From a virus: DNA of 64,000 bases. The stretch spans positions 1 through 64,000 of IMG/VR virus record IMGVR_UViG_3300025534_000182; one strand, given 5' to 3'. Shown here piece after piece: positions 17,175-63,489 of this stretch. Position numbers and translations under genes: made by a program. Below the pieces are notes generated by a model, which searched no databases, was not told the origin of the DNA, and was given only the letters and a program-made list of their open reading frames with translations. Position 1 is the stretch's first letter. Every line of letters begins with the position of its first letter.

Positions 17175-17249
17175 TGGTGGAGCCGGAGAATTACGATATC
17201 TCGACCGACCGCTTATGAGGCGGATGCTCTTCCTCTGAGCTACGGCTCC
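17175..17249 (-). tRNA. tRNA with anticodon CAU (Met or Ile2 type), CCA encoded, non-canonical T-loop
   Basis: On the minus strand: GGAGCCG-UA-GCUC-AGAGGAA-GAGC-A-UCCGC-CUCAUAA-GCGGU-CGGUC-GAGAU-AUCGUAA-UUCUC-CGGCUCC-A-CCA. Features are a 7-bp acceptor stem, D arm, U33 and A37 flanking CAU, and a T-loop AUCGUAA with a swapped 54-58 pair. Confidence 0.6.
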
Positions 17250-18118: not shown

Positions 18119-18289
18119 TTATTGGTTTTTCTTTTGGTGTTTATCTAATATTGCTTCTAATTCCTTAACTGTACGCTTTTTATAATATTCAATAGTTTCA
18201 GAAAGCAAATTTGATTTAAATGGTAATAAATTTTTTTCATGAAGATAATAAATCAATCCCTCTTTATTTAAAACATAATCATGTTTCAT
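18119..18289 (-). CDS. small hypothetical protein (56 aa) translationally coupled to the upstream MTase
   Basis: Its ATG lies 8 nt before the MTase stop. The longer 84-aa version would overlap the MTase by 95 nt. Confidence 0.35.
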   Translation of the reverse strand: MKHDYVLNKEGLIYYLHEKNLLPFKSNLLSETIEYYKKRTVKELEAILDKHQKKNQ

Positions 18290-19202
18290 TAATAATTTTT
18301 TGGTCGATTCCTTCACTGGACAGCAACCTTTCATTAGTAATTTCGATAGCTCTTGAGTTAATATCACAACCAATATACCTTCTATTTAATTCTTTGGCAA
18401 CTACTAATGTGGTTCCTGAACCACAAAAAAAATCTGCTACTACATCGCCCTCATCCGTTGAGGACAATATAATTCTTCTTAACAACTCTTTAGGCTTTTG
18501 TGTGTCATAATTAACAGATTCATAATTTTTTCCATGTGAAAGATTTGGTATATCGTTCCATATTGAACCTATCGCTAATTTAAATTCATCCAAGTAATAT
18601 TTTTTATACTCCTTACCAGAAGAAGTTTTATGTATTAATCCATTTTCTTTCATTCTTTTGATTGATTCCAAAGAATAATCTCCTAAAGTAACAATTTTAT
18701 ATTTTCTCCCAGTTGGTTCACTATATCTAAATTCTTTAAGTTGAGTATAAGTCAATTCATCACCTGATTTATATTGCTGATAAAATTTATTATTTTTGCT
18801 TTTTGAATAAAAAAGAATATTGTCAAACTCCCTCGGCCATTGTTTAGATGTTTTTTTAGCACCTTTGCCAACGGCATCTCTTTGCCATATAATCTCATTT
18901 CTATAATTATCTTCGCCAAAAATTTTATCTAACTCGACTTTCAAATAGTGAGACAGACGATAATCCATATGTAAGTATAGAGATCCTGTTGTTTTTAGAA
19001 GTCTATGCATATGTATCAAACGTGGAATATACCAATCAATAGCATCTTTTGTTGTTCCAAGTTTATCATTATAATCTTTAAATTTTCTTCCTGTATTATA
19101 TAAAATATCACAATAAATAAGGTCAATACTCTCACTCGGTAGACTCTTCATTAATTCTAAATTATCCATGCAATATATTTTATTTATTTCTATATTTATC
19201 AC
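18279..19202 (-). CDS. DNA methyltransferase (N6A/N4C beta-class) with unusual motif IV DILY
   Basis: Motif I FFCGSGTT at the C-terminal end and IDLIYCDILYN in the motif IV position. Confidence 0.7.
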   Translation of the reverse strand: MINIEINKIYCMDNLELMKSLPSESIDLIYCDILYNTGRKFKDYNDKLGTTKDAIDWYIPRLIHMHRLLKTTGSLYLHMDYRLSHYLKVELDKIFGEDNYRNEIIWQRDAVGKGAKKTSKQWPREFDNILFYSKSKNNKFYQQYKSGDELTYTQLKEFRYSEPTGRKYKIVTLGDYSLESIKRMKENGLIHKTSSGKEYKKYYLDEFKLAIGSIWNDIPNLSHGKNYESVNYDTQKPKELLRRIILSSTDEGDVVADFFCGSGTTLVVAKELNRRYIGCDINSRAIEITNERLLSSEGIDQKIINET

Positions 19203-19223
19203 CTCATTTTTCCAATAAAATTC

Positions 19224-20057
19224 CTATTTTATTGGATAATCCTCATTAATACTTTCCAATCTTAAATTTGCAATTTGTATATACTCAGGAGAAATTTCAA
19301 AACCTATGTATTTTCTTTTATTAATTTGTGCCATCTTAGCTGTTGTTCCACTACCCATGAATGGATCTAAAACAATATCACCTTCATTTGACCATGATAA
19401 GATATGGTCTTCAGCAAGTTTTTCAGGAAATATCGCAGGATGTTGAAAAGCGATTTTATCTTTTGTTGCTTGATTAAATCCAACAGAATAACTCCATACA
19501 TTTGTTTTATATTTTTTTGTATTTCTACCTCTCTCAGTAGAAAAAGTTTTAATTTCGCCATTGGGCATTCTTTGTGCGGATTTTTTACCATGAGAATTAA
19601 GTTTTGCATCAACTTTAATTACATTAAATGTCTTGGGTTTCCCCTTGCTAAAAACAAACATATATTCAAAACATGGCTGATACCGATTATGTTCCAATGG
19701 AGTTGGGTTTTCTTTAAGATAGATCATTGTATCATGCAAATTAAACCCGCAAACATCCTTAAAATACAATGCTTGACGAAAACTTGTTCCGGTCTCACTC
19801 CCATTAATTGTCGCATCTGCTACAATCCAAACGACAACACCTCCGAGCTTCGTAACTCGATACAATTCCTTAGCAATCTCCTCAAATTTAAATGTATAAC
19901 CGTTATAAGTACGTAAATTGTCGTAAGGTGGAGATGTTACAGTTAAATCAATACTTTTATCTGGCAATAATTTCATTCCCTCTAGACAATCCATTTGATA
20001 AATACGATTTATTTCAAGACTTCCAAGTAATTCTTTACTCAATAAACTACCCTCCAT
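19224..20057 (-). CDS. DNA methyltransferase (N4C/N6A beta-class, SPPY)
   Basis: IDLTVTSPPYDN (motif IV) and DPFMGSGTT (motif I). Confidence 0.8.
   Translation of the reverse strand: MEGSLLSKELLGSLEINRIYQMDCLEGMKLLPDKSIDLTVTSPPYDNLRTYNGYTFKFEEIAKELYRVTKLGGVVVWIVADATINGSETGTSFRQALYFKDVCGFNLHDTMIYLKENPTPLEHNRYQPCFEYMFVFSKGKPKTFNVIKVDAKLNSHGKKSAQRMPNGEIKTFSTERGRNTKKYKTNVWSYSVGFNQATKDKIAFQHPAIFPEKLAEDHILSWSNEGDIVLDPFMGSGTTAKMAQINKRKYIGFEISPEYIQIANLRLESINEDYPIK
19985..20057. repeat. about 70-bp DNA segment nearly identical to 25620..25691 (5' ends of two MTase paralogs)
   Basis: Encodes LLGSLEINRIYQMDCLEGMKLLPDKSID in both. The DNA aligns with few mismatches. Confidence 0.6.
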
Positions 20058-45331: not shown

Positions 45332-45731
45332 ATCTCCATGCGAATATTGAATATCTATCCATCGCAATGATCTCCTCAATATCTCCCATTTGAATAATAA
45401 ACTGTTCAATATCATTAAAATCGTATGGCCCCATATCTCCCCTCGTTTTACTTAATCTTTTTAGAACTGTTGGAAGATGTATTCCAAAACAACCTTCTCT
45501 TTGCGGATTTACTGTTAATTCTTCCGCTGCAATTGAAATACTAAGCATATTGTCTACAAATTCTTCCGCCATTTTTCTTTTAAAAGGACAATTTATTGGC
45601 ACATAAATATAATTTTTATCCCACGGTATTTTTCCTTTTCCAAACCAAATTATCATCCACATAGGACATAATTTATCATTGAAATAATCATAATATACAG
45701 ATATCTTTGCCACCCTAATCCACATCCACAA
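45330..45731 (-). CDS. hypothetical protein
   Basis: 133-aa ORF. Confidence 0.5.
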   Translation of the reverse strand: MWMWIRVAKISVYYDYFNDKLCPMWMIIWFGKGKIPWDKNYIYVPINCPFKRKMAEEFVDNMLSISIAAEELTVNPQREGCFGIHLPTVLKRLSKTRGDMGPYDFNDIEQFIIQMGDIEEIIAMDRYSIFAWR

Positions 45732-46461
45732 TGTAACTTTTTACTTGACCTTGAATCATAACATCATTTAAGGATAAAATCCTTGGTTCAACTTTAGGGT
45801 TGGACGCTTGCAGTATCACATTGTTCCCTTCGTAGTAAATTCTTTTAAGCGTTGCTTCTTCTCCGTCAATTAATACCACTCCTATTTTTCCATTCTCTAC
45901 ATAATTTTGACGACGAATAAGCACTTTGCATCCATCTGTTATACCATCTCCGATCATACTGTCTCCTTTGACTATTAAATAAAAATATTCACCATCTGAA
46001 ACTAATTTTTTTGAAACAACCTCATATCCTATAATATTCTGTTCGGCTATCAAATCATATCCAGCCTTGATTGTTCCATAAATTGGTATCTCAACAATAT
46101 TAGAATCATAAATATTAATAATGTCTTGTTGAAGCGAATTGTTTTTAACTTGTGATTTTCTATATGCTTCCATAATTTTTGATATAACAGAATCACTTTT
46201 CTTTTTTATTTGTTCTATTTTATGCGTCAAGTCATCTTCATTTAAGTATCCTGCTCTTCGTAACAATTCTTCATACGTGATGTATTTAAAACATTTTGAC
46301 AATTGCTCTAATATTTCAGGACTGGTTCTTGTAGTTCCAGATTCAAGTCTACTAATTGTCGCATGGTTAACTCCTGACTTCTCAGCTAGTTCACGTTGCG
46401 AATTATATCCTTCTCTTTTTCTTATTTCTGCGAAGAATTCACCAAACTCCTTTAAATCCAT
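45715..46461 (-). CDS. CI/LexA-like repressor (N-terminal XRE HTH plus C-terminal S24 peptidase)
   Basis: QRELAEKSGVNHATISRLESG HTH. C-terminal GDSMIGDGITDGCKVLIRRQ...K S24 Ser/Lys dyad. The start was set at MDLKEF. Confidence 0.7.
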   Translation of the reverse strand: MDLKEFGEFFAEIRKREGYNSQRELAEKSGVNHATISRLESGTTRTSPEILEQLSKCFKYITYEELLRRAGYLNEDDLTHKIEQIKKKSDSVISKIMEAYRKSQVKNNSLQQDIINIYDSNIVEIPIYGTIKAGYDLIAEQNIIGYEVVSKKLVSDGEYFYLIVKGDSMIGDGITDGCKVLIRRQNYVENGKIGVVLIDGEEATLKRIYYEGNNVILQASNPKVEPRILSLNDVMIQGQVKSYIVDVD

Positions 46462-46493
46462 ATTAATCACCCAAGATATAATGATATCATGTA

Positions 46494-46531
46494 TGTTGCT
46501 TACATGCAACATTATAAAAAAGTGTTGCAAC
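46494..46531. promoter_or_regulatory. operator palindromes TGTTGC-N6-GCAACA (46494-46511) and GTTGCAAC (46524-46531) in the divergent promoter region
   Basis: Overlap candidate -35 hexamers TTGCAT-17-TATCAT (repressor) and TTGCAA-17-TACTAT (plus-strand gene). Confidence 0.5.
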
Positions 46532-50477: not shown

Positions 50478-51590
50478 TTATTTTTCTTTTACCGCTTGAA
50501 TCAGAAGTTGAATACGTTTTTTAACATTAGATTCTTTAGCGCTACCACTTGTCTTTGTATCCCTATAAGAACCAGTATTTTTCACAATCAATGAAGCGGT
50601 TCTTCCGCCAAATGTGTCTGCATCGATATCGTTCATCAATTCAGCAGCAGCACCAGCCAATCCAATAATGTCATTTTTCTTAAGTATTTTCTTTCTGTGT
50701 TTTTCTTCCAGATTTCTGAATGCGTTTGTTAAATAATCGAATACATCAGAAACCTTCTTCTTGTCATCATCCGACATCCCATTAATACGTAAATCGATTG
50801 AAAATTCTCTTACATGTTTGCTACTCATATCATTTAGTCTTCCAGTAACCAAACCAATTACCTGTAAAATTAATTCCTGATCAACAAATTTGTCACGCTG
50901 GTTATCAGTTAATGCCGCCATTTCAAAAAATGGTTTTTGCGCTATGCTGTCAATATATTCTAACCACTCAGAACCAAGAATAGAACGTGTTAGTTCTATT
51001 GCTGAAAGCGGTGTTCCGCTGTTAAGTCGCTTAAATAATTGATCTCTTTGATCTATGGTAAGTCGCTCAAACTGATAAAACGTTAATGTTAGTTCATCAA
51101 AAAACTCTTGAAATTCCTCAGGAAGTTCTGAGAATTTTTTTCCAGTAATATCAACACCAAAAGCGTTTGGTAATTCACTTAATTCCCATTCGTCTTTGCA
51201 AAAGCTAATAAGCGTAGTCAATCTTTGTTTTCCATCCAGCACCCATAAACTGTTATCTTCGCTTTTGATCGAATATATTGCTGGAATCGGATATCCCAAA
51301 ATAACAGATTCGATAAGAGAACTTTTCTGTTCGCGTGTCCAACGAAGATTACGCTGAATCACAAGATTGAAATTTAACTTTGAAGGATTTTTAACTAACG
51401 ACCGCAATCCAATTTGAATCGCTGGCTGTTTAGCGATTCTTTCTTTTTCAATCCGTTCTCTCAAAGACATATTTTCAACAGTTCCCACCTGAGTAACACT
51501 CCCTTCTTTTTCAAACATATTTTCGTCATAAGTAACCTGATTTCCTTCCTTTACGCTAACATTTTCTTCTAGCGTCAATACTTGTTCCAT
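50478..51590 (-). CDS. DUF262-type ParB-like nuclease/NTPase domain protein (GmrS-like N-domain) without a recognisable HNH partner domain
   Basis: ...LGYPIPAIYSIKSEDNSLWVLDGKQRLTTLISF matches the DUF262 (I/V)DGQQR block. Confidence 0.55.
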   Translation of the reverse strand: MEQVLTLEENVSVKEGNQVTYDENMFEKEGSVTQVGTVENMSLRERIEKERIAKQPAIQIGLRSLVKNPSKLNFNLVIQRNLRWTREQKSSLIESVILGYPIPAIYSIKSEDNSLWVLDGKQRLTTLISFCKDEWELSELPNAFGVDITGKKFSELPEEFQEFFDELTLTFYQFERLTIDQRDQLFKRLNSGTPLSAIELTRSILGSEWLEYIDSIAQKPFFEMAALTDNQRDKFVDQELILQVIGLVTGRLNDMSSKHVREFSIDLRINGMSDDDKKKVSDVFDYLTNAFRNLEEKHRKKILKKNDIIGLAGAAAELMNDIDADTFGGRTASLIVKNTGSYRDTKTSGSAKESNVKKRIQLLIQAVKEK

Positions 51591-52375: not shown

Positions 52376-52475
52376 TTGACACTCCCCATGCCTAAAGGCA
52401 GGGGATTCTTGGGTAGTCACTTTTACCGAAGTGAAATTGACCAAGCTATCCCCGTGCGTCCCACGGTTCATTTTT
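52376..52475 (-). ncRNA. candidate TnpB omega-RNA scaffold (RE-derived)
   Basis: Structured GC-richer segment between the tnpB stop and the RE end. Confidence 0.4.
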
Positions 52476-53558
52476 TTAAACGGCATATTTCAAAATATTC
52501 TTCGCTGCATTTACATCACGGTCATGGATAATACTACATTTAGTACAAACCCATTCTCTAATACTCAAATCCTTCACTTCTTCATTTTTATATCCACATT
52601 CGCTACATATTTGACTTGAAGCAAAAAAACGATCTATTTTCCTTACTTCTCTTCCATACCATTGTGCCTTATATTCCAATTGTCTTACAAATTCACCCCA
52701 TGACACATCGGCAATATTCCTTGCCAACTTGTCATTCTGCAACATACCTTTTACATTCAAATCTTCAATGGCGATTACTTGGTTTTCGTTAATCAGCCTT
52801 GAAGATAGTTTATGCAAAAAGTCTGTGCGACAATTAGCGATTTTTTCATGAATGCGAGCAACTTTTAATCTTGTCTTTTCTCTGTTCCTACCACCTTTTT
52901 TACGACGATATAATTTTCGTTGCCAATATTTAAGTTTATTGAGATACTTATCTAGATACTTTTGATTTTCAACAATTTCACCATTAGACAAAGTTGCAAA
53001 AGATTTAATACCCAAATCAATGCCAATGGAGTTATTAATTTTAGGTAATGGTTGAATATCAATTTCGCATGTTATAGATATAAAGTATTTTCCTGTTGGA
53101 TTACGTCTAATAGTGGCCTTAATAATTCTACCTTCGACATCTCTTGATTTTGCAAATTTAACTAATCCTAGTTTGGGTAACTGAATTTTATTGCTTTCAA
53201 CTCTAATATTCATTTTAGATGTATAAGATTGTACTGGATTTTTCTTCGATTTATATTTTGGGTATCCAGCGTTTTCTTTTAAAAATTTTTGAAACGCTGA
53301 ATCCAAATTCTTCAATGATGTTTGTAATGCTGTCGAATCAACTTCTTTGAGCCAAGTTAATTCCTTTTTTAGTTTAGTTAATTCACCAGAACAAGAATTA
53401 TAATTCAATGTTTTATTTTCGTTCTCGTATACTTCTTTACGCCTAGAAAGAAAGTGATTATAAACAAATCGGCAACATCCAAATGTTTTGTTAATTAAAA
53501 TTTCTTGCTGTTTATTTGGATAAATACGAAATTTATACGCTTTATGGAATGTTGCCAT
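52476..53558 (-). CDS. tnpB: TnpB (IS605 OrfB)
   Basis: [10 protein letters not shown] (RuvC-I), [12 protein letters not shown] (RuvC-II), CSECG...CTKCS zinc finger, [11 protein letters not shown] (RuvC-III). Confidence 0.85.
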
Positions 53559-53563
53559 TTTGT

Positions 53564-53968
53564 TTAATCACTCCTTTCTTTTTGGTTTTCAATATATTGT
53601 TTTACTACTTCTAACGAAATTGAACCAACTGTTGCAACAAAATATGAATTAGTCCACATTGACGGCAAACGACTTTTAAGATGTTTAAATTCTTGTCTCA
53701 AAATCCTTGATGAATATCCTTTTAAATGTTTTACTACCCGATGTATTCCAAATTGCGGATCACATTTAATCAACAAATGAACATGATCAGGCATTATTTC
53801 CATTTCAACAATTTCTGCATTTAATTCTTTTATTTTATTATTAAAAAGCTCTTTAAGTCTTTTATCAACAGGATCTATTAATACATTTTTTCTGTATTTT
53901 GGACAAAAAACAACATGGTACTTGCAATCATATACAATATTATTATTTGAATTTATATCTCTTGACAT
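53564..53968 (-). CDS. tnpA: IS200-type HUH Y1 transposase TnpA
   Basis: [12 protein letters not shown] ... MPDHVHLLI (HuH) ... catalytic Tyr region YSSRIL. The ATG start has a GGGTGA SD. Confidence 0.85.
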
Positions 53969-53986
53969 TTCTTTCACCCAATTATT

Positions 53987-54015
53987 AGTATATACAAAAA
54001 TGTTAGATATGTCAA
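53987..54015 (-). promoter_or_regulatory. tnpA promoter TTGACA-17-TATACT inside the IS left end
   Basis: Read on the minus strand: cttgacatatctaacatttttgtatatact. Confidence 0.5.
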
Positions 54016-54083
54016 GTCTATCTAACGCTATATCGCCTTATATCCCCATGAGTAAACGCAGGGGTTTTACGCGACATCATATA

Positions 54084-54263
54084 ATTAAATGTTCTAATCA
54101 AACATACATCTTGTGTTAGTTGTTCAATAAGCAAATAGCGCCTATAATCTTTAATTTTTTCTGACGGTTCAATCTCATTATTCGTTTCAATTGAAAAATA
54201 AACCAAATTCAATTTCCGGCTTTCCTGAAAAAATGCTAAACGATTTAAAATCAATACTTCCAT
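54084..54263 (-). pseudogene. 5' portion of the host ORF disrupted by IS605 (its ORF continues 22 codons into the IS left end)
   Basis: MEVLILNRLAFFQE...LIRTFN then the IS-encoded YMMSRKTPAFTHGDIRRYSVR*. Confidence 0.35.
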
Positions 54264-54393
54264 CTAAACCATCAATGCCATCCTTGGGATAAACTAACAC
54301 ATACTTCCCAAACCCTTCATTTGTTCTTTTAAAAATAACATCATTCATAATTAAAACTTCCATTTATTAAATTAAAACATTTTAAACGAAAAA

Positions 54394-54421
54394 AGCTACC
54401 ATATCGGTAGCTCTTTTCTCC
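54394..54421 (-). terminator. hairpin agctaccatatcggtagct with T-tracts on both strands (bidirectional)
   Basis: Minus strand reads ...gagctaccgatatggtagcttttttcgttt. Confidence 0.55.
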
Positions 54422-54606
54422 TCGCTAGGTACGATAAAGATGTAATAAAGTTAAAATGATAAAAATATTTTTGCGACAATTCCTTATAGGTAGGATAGTG
54501 AATCAAACCTCATATTTTTCAAATCCTTATAGGTACGTAACAACAAACTCATAACAATATAAAATAGGGTTAAACAAACTTAATTTCAAGTCCTATGAGG
54601 TACAAT
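54417..54606. repeat. array of four related 12-nt motifs (CCTTATAGGTAgg / CCTTATAGGTAcg / CCTATGAGGTAca / CGCTAGGTAcg) at about 45-65 bp spacing
   Basis: Direct inspection. The array sits in a 390-bp non-coding gap bracketed by two terminators. Confidence 0.55.
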
Positions 54607-54624
54607 TAAATAATAACTTAAATC

Positions 54625-54650
54625 AGAAAAAATAGCAAGCATTTTTGCTT
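54625..54650 (-). terminator. hairpin agcaagcatttttgcttgct plus UUUUUU immediately after the 54652 gene stop
   Basis: Minus strand reads atagcaagcaaaaatgcttgctattttttc. Confidence 0.55.
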
Positions 54651-54651
54651 G

Positions 54652-54993
54652 CTATAACTCTTCTTTTTTTACTTCAATTGCTGTTATTCGTACAAACCGG
54701 TCAAATACAAATTTTCGACCATTTACAGCTACGTCGTATTCGTTGCCTTGAACAAGTTTCATTTCTGCATAAAGAGGCCGAATGCCTCTTTTAATAAGTT
54801 CGATAATAACAGATAACGGCGCAACAACTACCATTTCTTCTGCACCAGATCGTTTAAACCGATTTGCTACATCATCTGCATTTGAAAATGGATTTGAATC
54901 TAATATAATTTCAACATCAGATCCAAATATTCGCTTTAATTCTGTTATTTGTTTTTGTATCGGTTCATGACGAGAAAACCATATAATTTTCAT
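54652..54993 (-). CDS. hypothetical protein
   Basis: 113-aa ORF. Confidence 0.5.
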   Translation of the reverse strand: MKIIWFSRHEPIQKQITELKRIFGSDVEIILDSNPFSNADDVANRFKRSGAEEMVVVAPLSVIIELIKRGIRPLYAEMKLVQGNEYDVAVNGRKFVFDRFVRITAIEVKKEEL

Positions 54994-61528: not shown

Positions 61529-62725
61529 TTATGCGCTTTGTTCGTTTTCTTTTTGTTTGTAAGGATACAAATACCAATTATCATAATTAACGACGTATTC
61601 GTTTTTAGTATTCTTTTTTATTTGCTTCCTTTCCTGCTTGTCGTTTATAAATTTATCTTTAATGGGTTTTCCGTCTTCAATGGCAATTTGCTGAATAGTT
61701 ACGCTTTTTTCTGTTACTTTTACAACCTTAAAAGCTGCTATTATAATATTTCCGGCAACGTTATGACGCACTAAGATATCGCCAACATTGAATGGATTTT
61801 CAATTATTTGTTTTTGTTCTGTCCAGTTTTCAGGAATTTTCACTTCCTGAATTTCCGCATATGGATATTTCAATGTATACGGAACATAAGACGATTTTAC
61901 TTCGACGGTTTTTGTATTTGCTTTTACTACAACATCCCAATAACCACGAATTTTGACGAGATAACCGGGTTTTATGTTATCTTTGTTGTATTGTATACCT
62001 CCCAATTCATCCAAACAATTTTGAAAAAATGCAAGCTTATCGATTTCATATTCCATTTTTTCAAGTAAACTCTCTAACCATTTCTCGTTATTTTGTTCTT
62101 CTGCTGTTATGATCAATTTTTCATACTTACGAATGTTTGCGTTGCACTCTTCAATTCTGTTATATAAGTATGTTTTATCTTGCAATTGTGCCATGCTTGC
62201 CGTTTGATAAGCTGTCATGGCTTTTTGGCGAAAATATTCACTTTTTCTATATTCTTCAAAGCCTTTATGATAGCGTTCGTAAATACGCTCCCTTTGTTTT
62301 CTAAATCGTTCTGATCCTGCATGTCCGGCAATAATTGGTTGTGTAAAAAATGCAACATCATGGTTTCGTAAATATTCATTCATTTCTACTTGAAATGCTT
62401 CGGCACGTTTTTCTGCATTTTTTGCATACTGTTCATAACGTTCTGCCCTAGCTTCTGCTTTTTCTGCTTTTCGTTGCAATTCTTCAGCATATGTAAGCCT
62501 TTCGCCTACTTTTCCGCCATCAGAAAAGCCCAATTTTTCAGCAATCCGAATAGCCATATAGTGATTATTAACTCCTCTAGACACCCAAGCAGAACGGGAC
62601 GGACTCCAAAGAAAAAACCGCTTTAATTCTGCTTTTTGTTGTTCTGTTAAAGATTGGTATTCTGATTTTTCAAAGTGCAATTCGATTTTTCCCGTTTCGC
62701 GATTCAATACGTATTGTTTTTGCAT
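61529..62725 (-). CDS. hypothetical protein (398 aa)
   Basis: Long ORF with an AAGGAGG SD. Confidence 0.55.
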   Translation of the reverse strand: MQKQYVLNRETGKIELHFEKSEYQSLTEQQKAELKRFFLWSPSRSAWVSRGVNNHYMAIRIAEKLGFSDGGKVGERLTYAEELQRKAEKAEARAERYEQYAKNAEKRAEAFQVEMNEYLRNHDVAFFTQPIIAGHAGSERFRKQRERIYERYHKGFEEYRKSEYFRQKAMTAYQTASMAQLQDKTYLYNRIEECNANIRKYEKLIITAEEQNNEKWLESLLEKMEYEIDKLAFFQNCLDELGGIQYNKDNIKPGYLVKIRGYWDVVVKANTKTVEVKSSYVPYTLKYPYAEIQEVKIPENWTEQKQIIENPFNVGDILVRHNVAGNIIIAAFKVVKVTEKSVTIQQIAIEDGKPIKDKFINDKQERKQIKKNTKNEYVVNYDNWYLYPYKQKENEQSA

Positions 62726-62745: not shown

Positions 62746-62830
62746 TTTTGGCTTGTTCGCCACCCTAACCGCTTTAATAGCGGTTAGACGCTCTGGGCTT
62801 AAAGCGCTGTTTAGACACGCCCAGACGTGT
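62746..62830 (-). other. GC-rich (over 50%) tandem hairpins in the leader of the 61529..62725 gene
   Basis: ctaaccgc-N7-gcggttag and ctctgggc...gcccagacg inverted repeats. No U-tract. Confidence 0.4.
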
Positions 62831-63489
62831 TAATTTATGTTTAATGATACAATTGGTTGCTTCTGAACTGTATTAATAACGTCAAAAAATAATTTATTGT
62901 CAAAACTATAATATTTTGTTTCTTTAACTGTTATATGATTATCGCTTTTTGTGACATTGTAAATTAATTTGTCAAAATCAATATCTAGCCATTCGTCAAA
63001 AATGAGTAATGATTCATTTGGTAAAATCCTATTCGCATATAAAGAACGTTTACGCTTGAGCTTGTGTACGATTTTCAATGTTTCTTTATATTGCGCCCAA
63101 GGCTCTACTATTGCCTTGTCAATGACAGTATGAAACATGATCGGATAGCCAATATCAGAATATTTTATGATTGTTACTTTGCGTCCTTGTGTTAGTTGCT
63201 GTAATGCATTTTCAAAAATGCTGTAATGATGATAAAAATACTCACGCAAAAACGAAGCTATAGGCGAACCTTTGAAAACTTTTTGAGCTTGGTCAATCAA
63301 TTCAGCAGTTACTTGTATGTTATTTGATTTAAGAAGAGAAAAGAATATTCTTTTCACTTCTTTTTGTTGGTCTGGTGTCATATCTTGATATTTTTTGCAC
63401 GCAACACTAAAGCAGGAATCAGTAAGTAAATCAGAAAGGTTATCTAGTTGTTGGGTATAGTTTGAAATAGATATGTTCATGTTGATCAT
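62830..63489 (-). CDS. hypothetical protein
   Basis: 219 aa with an AAAGGAGAATG SD. Confidence 0.5.
   Translation of the reverse strand: MINMNISISNYTQQLDNLSDLLTDSCFSVACKKYQDMTPDQQKEVKRIFFSLLKSNNIQVTAELIDQAQKVFKGSPIASFLREYFYHHYSIFENALQQLTQGRKVTIIKYSDIGYPIMFHTVIDKAIVEPWAQYKETLKIVHKLKRKRSLYANRILPNESLLIFDEWLDIDFDKLIYNVTKSDNHITVKETKYYSFDNKLFFDVINTVQKQPIVSLNIN

Follow-up and report, generated by a model that had tools for sequence, protein, structure and literature searches.

CRISPR mini-arrays are carried by viruses and prophages, among them the type I-B arrays of Clostridioides difficile prophages, and are used in conflicts between mobile elements. RNA anti-CRISPRs of the Racr kind trap Cas6 and Cas7 in aberrant complexes (Camara-Wilpert et al., 2023, PMC10651486), and viral guides of the Cracr kind, which are mostly 17–21 nucleotides (nt) long (type I-F), have a match of at least 9 nt, proximal to the protospacer-adjacent motif, in a cas or creT promoter of the host (Liu et al., bioRxiv 10.1101/2024.10.29.618823). 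The RNA anti-CRISPRs tested in these two papers belong to types I-C, I-E, I-F and V-A, and type I-B is represented there by predicted candidates only (PMC10651486; bioRxiv 10.1101/2024.10.29.618823). The locus described here lies on a stretch of viral DNA of 64,000 nt (positions 1 to 64,000 of IMG/VR record IMGVR_UViG_3300025534_000182), hereafter called the window. Judged from its sequence, the element is a cas-less, degenerate type I-B CRISPR-like mini-array of four divergent repeat mimics on a temperate, SPbeta-like phage of the Bacillota. In the explanation that is favoured, with moderate confidence, its transcript serves as an RNA anti-CRISPR of the Racr or Cracr kind, acting as a decoy or as a guide on the CRISPR proteins of the host.

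Repeat family and anatomy of the array

The 12-nt motif that recurs four times in the array is, on the comparisons given below, the invariant core of a widespread family of 30-nt CRISPR repeats, GTTTnnAnnGTACCTATAAGGAATTGAAAC (Rfam CRISPR-DR2, RF01315). A 20-mer from R2, the best-preserved unit (GTACCTATAAGGAWTTGAAA), is found as the repeat of true arrays at no fewer than 120 loci (at least 120, counting one genome per species), most of the loci listed being arrays of up to approximately 100 repeats. These loci span Thermoactinomycetaceae, Paenibacillus, Anoxybacillus, many Clostridia, Caloranaerobacter, Nitrospirae, Aquificales and others. Genuine arrays of the family have a period of 65–70 nt and nearly identical copies; a true array on an IMG/VR contig, for example, repeats GTTTGTATCGTACCTATGAGGAATTGAAAC with spacers of approximately 36 nt. 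Among 53 distinct genuine repeats, positions 1–4 (GTTT), 10–22 (GTACCTATAAGGA) and 23–30 (ATTGAAAC) are almost invariant, which is circular as regards positions 10–29 because the search pattern had fixed them.

An nhmmer profile of these 53 repeats gave R2 (E = 7.7e-6), R3 (E = 3.6e-5) and R4 (E = 1.2) as its top three matches in the window, all on the minus strand. The Rfam scan at the gathering threshold returned no match at the array locus; a permissive scan with CRISPR-DR2 (gathering score 37) reported R3 at 22.7 bits (E = 0.04) and R2 at 21.3 bits, the latter over the full 30-nt model including the 3-bp stem, and did not report R1 and R4. A chance resemblance to CRISPR is unlikely because the profile E values are of the order of 1e-5 and the identical 20-mer occurs in true arrays. 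Rfam gives its consensus, GUUUCAAUCCCUuAUAGGUAgGcUAAAAAC, in the sense of the plus strand of the window; therefore, the functional orientation of the repeat is the minus strand, which is also the strand of the terminators and of all neighbouring genes.

In Weizmannia coagulans, this repeat family adjoins cas operons and has been typed as I-B (PMC8954581, Table 4). Subtype I-B rests on this literature table because no neighbouring cas genes were found beside two genuine arrays of the family (L022 and L048), which are orphan arrays. Type III systems often share arrays with such repeats. In Clostridium thermocellum and Methanococcus maripaludis, Cas6b cuts repeats of this kind 8 nt from the 3′ end and leaves the 5′ tag AUUGAAAC.

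The four units are contained in 202 bp of the minus strand, in the orientation of the terminators (Table 1). They are identical to the family consensus at 20–23 of 30 positions and to one another at 15–19 of 30 (50–63%). The core GTACCTATAAGGA, with its 3-bp CCT/AGG stem, is exact in R2, R3 differs only at the base preceding the core (C for G), and R1 and R4 keep the stem with changed loops; the stem is intact in all four units, and the loops vary (CAT, ATA, ATA and AGCG). Over the 12-nt core, 43 of 48 positions match versus 43 of 72 in the flanks, a contrast that is partly one of ascertainment, R1 and R4 having been recognised by their core; these counts argue that the hairpin core has been selectively retained. 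The 8-nt 5′ handle of the CRISPR RNA (crRNA), ATTGAAAC, is not fully kept, R1 to R4 matching it at 6, 6, 5 and 2 of 8 positions, and none of the units starts with GTTT. R1 (21/30 to the consensus) is 80% identical to R2 over 20 nt, and its 5′ part overlaps the −10 element of the predicted promoter. In its 5′ part, R4 comes closest to the family (8/10); it has lost its handle, whose place is taken by the 5′ arm of the terminator. The segment S2, which is too short for a guide, resembles the 3′ half of a repeat. A longer repeat unit behind the 43-nt spacing of R2 and R3 was checked by alignment and dropped.

The array lacks the near-identical repeats, regular period and uniform 35–40-nt spacers of a bona fide CRISPR-Cas locus, its segments being 37, 13 and 31 nt long. 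None of the 38 open reading frames (ORFs) scanned across the 64 kb, a set with only part of the small ORFs, matched a Cas family. The sole Cas-like trace is a Cas12f1-like TNB domain in two TnpB genes, of which one belongs to a TnpA-TnpB element and the other is solo.

Table 1. Positions of the array, its flanking features and other elements of the window
Feature	Position	Strand	Sequence or description
113-amino acid (aa) gene	54652-54993	minus	directly upstream of array
Terminator of 113-aa gene	54625-54655	minus	ATAGCAAGCA-AAAA-TGCTTGCTAT then TTTTTCTG; 10-bp stem, 4-nt loop, T-run
Candidate sigma-70-type promoter	54638-54610	minus	-35 TTGCTA (54638-54633), 17-nt spacer, -10 TATTAT (54615-54610)
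R1	54612-54583	minus	TATTTAATTG-TACCTCATAGGA-CTTGAAAT; loop CAT, stem CCT/AGG kept, handle 6/8
Motif copy 1	54602-54591	minus	TACCTCATAGGA
S1	54582-54546	minus	37-nt spacer-like, TAAGTTTGTTTAACCCTATTTTATATTGTTATGAGTT; length canonical for family
R2 (best-preserved unit)	54545-54516	minus	TGTTGTTACG-TACCTATAAGGA-TTTGAAAA; 23/30 to consensus
Motif copy 2	54535-54524	minus	TACCTATAAGGA
S2	54515-54503	minus	13-nt linker, ATATGAGGTTTGA
R3	54502-54473	minus	TTCACTATCC-TACCTATAAGGA-ATTGTCGC; core exact, first 4 nt of handle kept
Motif copy 3	54492-54481	minus	TACCTATAAGGA
S3	54472-54442	minus	31-nt spacer-like, AAAAATATTTTTATCATTTTAACTTTATTAC
R4 (terminal degenerate unit)	54441-54411	minus	ATCTTTATCG-TACCTAGCGAGGA-GAAAAGAG; 4-nt loop
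Motif copy 4	54431-54419	minus	TACCTAGCGAGGA; loop 4 nt
Array-ending terminator	54418-54388	minus	GAAAAGAGCTACC-GATAT-GGTAGCTTTTTTC; 13-nt arms, 5-nt loop, TTTTTTCGTTT
IS-disrupted gene	54187-54363 and 54018-54263		overlapping 58-aa and 81-aa ORFs, cut by left end of IS element
IS200/IS605 element	52376-54080	minus	1,705 bp; TnpA (Y1_Tnp) 53564-53977, TnpB 52476-53558
GmrSD_N (DUF262) gene	50478-51590	minus	
LexA-like repressor	45715-46530	minus	helix-turn-helix + S24 peptidase
DndB-like gene	37263-38567	minus	
MrpR-type repressor/recombinase-like protein	36257-37336	minus	tyrosine-recombinase-like
Solo TnpB-like gene	30667-31713	minus	OrfB_IS605 + Cas12f1-like TNB domain
N6/N4 DNA methyltransferase genes	18279-20057 and 23870-25691	minus	four genes, two adjacent pairs
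tRNA-Met	17175-17249	minus	CAT anticodon
Pistol self-cleaving ribozyme (RF02679)	62758-62830	minus	67.8 bits vs gathering 34.5; between genes 62830-63489 and 61529-62725

A first-pass annotation of the window had described four related 12-nt motifs in a non-coding gap. Their positions on the minus strand were reproduced to within 1 nt, with start-to-start distances of 67, 43 and 61 nt that are irregular, as had been said, and the ORFs that overlap the gap, which extends from the 113-aa gene to the next gene (start at 54363), are all trivial (36 aa or less). What had escaped that annotation is that the similarity reaches approximately 20–30 nt per unit (TTTCAA[A/G]TCCT...GGTAC, 20 nt, 75–80% identity) and that the motif is that of a known CRISPR repeat family. 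A search of both strands of the 64 kb gave three matches to TACCTNNNAGGA, all of them in the stretch 54419-54602, so that the motif is not dispersed but unique to this part of the window. Only 0.16 ± 0.42 matches are expected in the shuffled window (none of 100 shuffles gave three), and the clustering is therefore not due to chance.

As four direct repeats in non-coding DNA, with a motif confined to one locus of the window, the array could represent the initiator-binding iterons of a replication origin, as was proposed at first, or an operator array for a phage DNA-binding protein. This explanation is, however, highly improbable. The motif coincides with the core of a family of CRISPR repeats and recurs at irregular distances. 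The neighbours are the 113-aa protein and an IS-disrupted gene, with no adjoining initiator gene, and the replication genes of the window lie at 8–15 kb. GC skew is negative in every 2-kb bin of the window and shows no sign change. In addition, homologous elements in relatives occur on either strand, with a promoter and a terminator of their own.

Both hairpins that bound the gap proved to be intrinsic terminators for minus-strand transcripts, in keeping with the strong terminators first noted there. The one that ends the array is the terminal hairpin in both the minimum free energy and the centroid structures. The other, predicted on the minus strand as a hairpin at 54655-54632 plus TTTTTCTGAT, is the own terminator of the 113-aa gene and separates the stretch from it, and the array is thus not simply the 3′ untranslated region of that gene. 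Transcription of the array is predicted to start at approximately 54604, just 5′ of the R1 hairpin, from a promoter-like site that lies upstream of the R1 core, at a distance of 7 nt. The match of this candidate promoter to the consensus (9/12) is not significant alone, since 12 promoter-like sites occur versus 11.1 in shuffles; its position agrees with the placement of promoters in other phage mini-arrays.

An ordinary regulatory small RNA (sRNA) or a set of tandem promoters, in which the likeness to CRISPR has no functional meaning, would account for the consensus matches TTGAAA(-17-)TATTTT and TTGCTA(-17-)TATTAT and for the fold z-score of −2.4 of the minus-strand RNA. It is nevertheless very unlikely: promoter-like sites are about as frequent as in shuffles, the hexamer TTGAAA is part of the repeat handle, and no Rfam sRNA family matches. 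The earlier idea of a cluster of phage-specific promoters fails likewise, its −35-like TTGAAA hexamers being the handle ATTGAAAC. The proposal of a small RNA gene that has its end at the downstream terminator holds in outline, with the amendment that the gene is one for a CRISPR-like mini-array RNA.

Mini-arrays in related and unrelated elements

Comparison of the units and of their surroundings establishes that they derive from or mimic the I-B repeat family, that they are laid out from a predicted promoter to a terminator, and that such arrangements recur both at this locus and in other phages. The 113-aa protein encoded directly upstream gave no Pfam, PHROG or PDB sequence match, and its AF2 model (pLDDT 93) has a generic alpha/beta fold with no informative PDB match; seven relatives with 33 invariant residues were found in the protein collection, and an IMG/VR search for loci with this protein found none. 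In three of the six lineages examined (window included), a CRISPR-like mini-array lies directly downstream of the 113-aa gene. The L137–L139 lineage (69% identity) has the units GTTTCGA-TACCTTTTAAGGA-CTTGTAAC and TATTTTAGCG-TACCTATAAGGA-ATTAACGC, separated by a 24-nt spacer, and the L142–L144 lineage (51% identity) has two units separated by a 37-nt spacer. The units of both are on the opposite strand, convergent with the 113-aa gene, and each lineage has its own TTGACA-17-TATAnT promoter. The gap contains small ORFs in the L140/L141 lineage, where an ArdA gene is nearby, and in two more lineages (L145 and L148/L149) a called gene begins immediately after the 113-aa gene; no unit was found in the 100-nt junction that follows it in L145. 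The 113-aa family is a candidate anti-defence protein or partner. In L143 (980-3374), ComM-like (Mg chelatase) and DprA genes come after the mini-array and look like host chromosome, which would place the array of L143 at the end of a prophage. At the end of L142 there is a tRNA-like sequence.

The layout of a promoter, units and a degenerate last unit, in most cases with a terminator, recurs in no fewer than seven unrelated phages, prophages or viral contigs of Bacillota. Among 50,697 sequenced phages, the repeat type is found only in the Paenibacillus phages Scottie and SV21 and the Parageobacillus phage JGon-2020a. In JGon-2020a (L001 590-700), a promoter is followed by a unit with the handle ATTGAAAC and then, after 20 nt of spacer, by a handle-less unit and a terminator. 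In SV21, Scottie and IMG/VR contig L005, two units abut or are 8–9 nt apart; spacers of 21–23 nt are found in IMG/VR contigs L008/L009 and L012, and a Paenibacillus oralis locus (L041) has three units between two terminators. The arrays of Scottie, SV21 and JGon-2020a have their own promoters; they carry no annotation or that of a 45-aa 'hypothetical protein'. The SV21 array (L002 560-660) adjoins an antirestriction gene, and that of Scottie (MH460825.1 ~18590-18740; L150 1430-1580) stands right after the lysis cassette and is followed by a terminator. These three arrays and L041 resemble that of the window in repeat family, promoter, units with ATTGAAAC-like handles and short or variable spacers, but they have two or three units instead of four, cores and handles nearer the consensus, and spacers of approximately 8–32 nt. 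In seven of the eight comparison loci tabulated, the handle of the last unit is degenerate or lost, as would be expected of a last unit whose only role is to provide the 3′ Cas6 hairpin for the final crRNA-like product.

The phage itself was recovered from four metagenome samples with 100% identity over at least 6.3 kb including the array, and a megablast search of the array neighbourhood against phages gave no match. A sister strain (L146/L147) is 95.6% identical over the aligned 2.4 kb, and its neighbouring DUF932 gene has diverged. Its array shows two differences, both in the seed of S1 (positions 2 and 5; TAAGT versus TGAGC). The substitutions between the two arrays are also given as three, these two included.

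These comparisons bear on the possibility that the array is a decaying, non-functional remnant of a host CRISPR array, gained by recombination and kept by chance. Star-like divergence, with units closer to the consensus (20–23/30) than to one another (15–19/30), fits independent drift, S2 is like a truncated half-repeat, and neither a cas gene nor a target was found. However, all four units retain the stem together with the bases that flank it, and the array is framed exactly, by a promoter-like site at one end and a strong terminator at the other. The handle-less last unit recurs in unrelated phages, related phages have other mini-arrays in the same gap, and the array differs by just 2 nt between strains that are 95.6% identical over the aligned 2.4 kb. 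A remnant is thus an unlikely explanation.

Proposed action of the array

In the model that we infer, a minus-strand RNA of approximately 215 nt would be transcribed from the array's own predicted promoter to the terminator at 54418-54388. The Cas6b of the host would bind the mini-hairpin (UA-CCU-loop-AGG-A) of each unit and cut after AGGA, 8 nt before the end of the unit. The crRNA-like products would begin with CUUGAAAU plus 37 nt, UUUGAAAA plus 13 nt and AUUGUCGC plus 31 nt, each continuing into the 5′ part and hairpin of the next unit, and their 5′ handles would be off-consensus. By a decoy route similar to that of Racrs, Cas6b and Cascade subunits may be tied up in non-productive complexes. 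By a guide route similar to that of Cracrs, Cascade may be steered to a host promoter, so that cas or a CRISPR-guarding toxin is shut off; both routes may be used together. The phage or prophage would then be shielded from type I-B immunity and from a co-resident type III system sharing the repeats. The decoy reading is favoured because of the 13-nt segment and the off-consensus handles, and a guide function is still conceivable because the seed of the 37-nt S1 differs between strains.

No protospacer of S1 or S3 was found by blastn of the whole array against the 50,697 phage records or by blastn-short in the rest of the window and in approximately 130 loci. Scans of IMG/VR and of the metagenome collection, which require an exact match except at every sixth base and therefore let diverged targets escape, also found none. 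When the approximately 130 loci were compared with the window (host spacers against the phage), the only matches outside the repeats were a shared methylase gene and chance AT-rich ones.

This outcome bears directly on the alternative that the element is a working mini-CRISPR, in which the Cas6b and Cascade of the host load crRNAs of S1 and S3 and cut a rival phage or plasmid, or else a target in the host. The length of S1 is canonical for the family, whose genuine arrays have a period of 65–70 nt, and a 37-nt spacer is likewise present in L142; the handles of R1 and R2 keep 6 of 8 nt, and the only differences of the sister-strain array are in the S1 seed, as if it were tracking a target. Nevertheless, neither the phage records, IMG/VR, the metagenomes, the window nor the approximately 130 loci hold a protospacer of S1 or S3, the repeats are far more divergent than in the true arrays examined, S2 is just 13 nt long, and the handle beside S3 is ATTGTCGC. 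A working mini-CRISPR is therefore improbable.

Several points also weigh against an RNA anti-CRISPR. No partial match to a cas promoter was found in the approximately 130 loci, in which only chance-level matches of 10–13 nt occur and which are not known to include the host. Loading onto Cascade is uncertain, since all four handles deviate from ATTGAAAC, and S1 and S3 (37 and 31 nt) exceed the 17–21 nt typical of viral Cracr guides. A pairwise identity of 15–19/30 is also expected from neutral decay of a captured array, the contrast between core and flanks is subject to the ascertainment mentioned above, and both Rfam matches (22.7 and 21.3 versus 37) score under the gathering threshold. An RNA anti-CRISPR is still the reading preferred here. 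In a more elaborate form, which is doubtful, the element would be a multiplexed RNA anti-CRISPR array against type I-B and possibly type III, its three products differing in handle and guide length and disabling several variants of host CRISPR. The locus would then be a conserved counter-defence hotspot, with the 113-aa protein as a co-operating anti-CRISPR and S1 as a live guide with an evolving seed.

Carrier phage and relation to described systems

The window has a GC content of approximately 31%, and nearly all of its ORFs of at least 90 aa are on the minus strand. It encodes ribonucleotide reductase, thymidylate synthase, thymidylate kinase, a primase-like protein, four DNA methylases and DUF932, PcfJ, DndB-like and GmrSD_N proteins, as well as a helicase that is 56% identical to those of Bacillus phages Goe11, Goe12 and Goe14. 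We take this gene set and the relationship to Goe11/12/14 to mark an SPbeta-like temperate phage; together with the two repressor genes (Table 1), the helicase points to an uncultured low-GC Bacillota host. The phage is heavily loaded with genes of restriction-evasion and defence type, and genes of a counter-defence type surround the array: within the window, DUF932 and the four DNA methylases, and, in relatives, ArdA.

Sister strain L146 lacks the IS200/IS605 element downstream of the array: the two flanks of the element meet there at window positions 54081|52375, and the downstream gene forms an uninterrupted 148-aa ORF. The insertion is recent. For the identity of the host, plasmid copies of the IS element were just ~65% identical and gave no clue. 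TnpB was equally uninformative, identical copies being found only on the phage's own contigs, the next at 81% in metagenomes and named relatives, in thermophilic Bacillales, at 62–67%. The repeat family, spread over many phyla among the at least 120 loci listed, indicates no single host.

The window and its sister loci suggest that, in phages of the Bacillota, mimics of the I-B repeat are carried as small RNA genes of several units. For annotation, a cluster of TACCTNNNAGGA in an intergenic gap of a phage should be interpreted as CRISPR mimicry rather than an origin. Scottie, SV21 and JGon-2020a, being cultured phages, are tractable systems.

In comparison with Racrs (PMC10651486), the array is likewise an intergenic phage repeat mimic without cas genes, downstream of a promoter (here a predicted one) and near candidate counter-defence genes, but a Racr is solitary by definition, whereas the window has four units, known here from sequence alone. 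SRUFinder drops repeats that cluster within 100 bp, as well as candidates flanked by partial repeats (PMC10651486), and a four-unit array would have been filtered out because of these rules for solitary repeats. Because clustered degenerate arrays are removed in this way, the class may be under-counted; subtype I-B has no occurrence in the main text of that report (PMC10651486).

The likeness to Cracrs lies in the degenerate psiR-psiS-psiR order, the multi-unit phage transcription unit and the terminator (Liu et al., bioRxiv 10.1101/2024.10.29.618823). Cracrs are often stacked in arrays; in the Cracr survey, I-B candidates were predicted, and the reported arrays have 2–3 spacers and belong to types I-C, I-E and I-F (bioRxiv 10.1101/2024.10.29.618823). 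The segments of the window are 37, 13 and 31 nt long versus 17–21 nt in Cracrs, and those of L001, L008, L012 and L137 are 20–24 nt. With mini-CRISPR arrays, the element has in common that it is cas-less, resides on a temperate phage and would depend on host Cas proteins, and that S1 has a canonical length. However, mini-CRISPR arrays have repeats that are essentially identical to those of the host and targets that can be identified, whereas the repeats of the window are 50–63% identical in pairs, with no target found. The array joins these recently defined viral CRISPR-repeat mimics (Racr, Cracr and mini-CRISPR), among which its heterogeneous four-unit layout is unusual.

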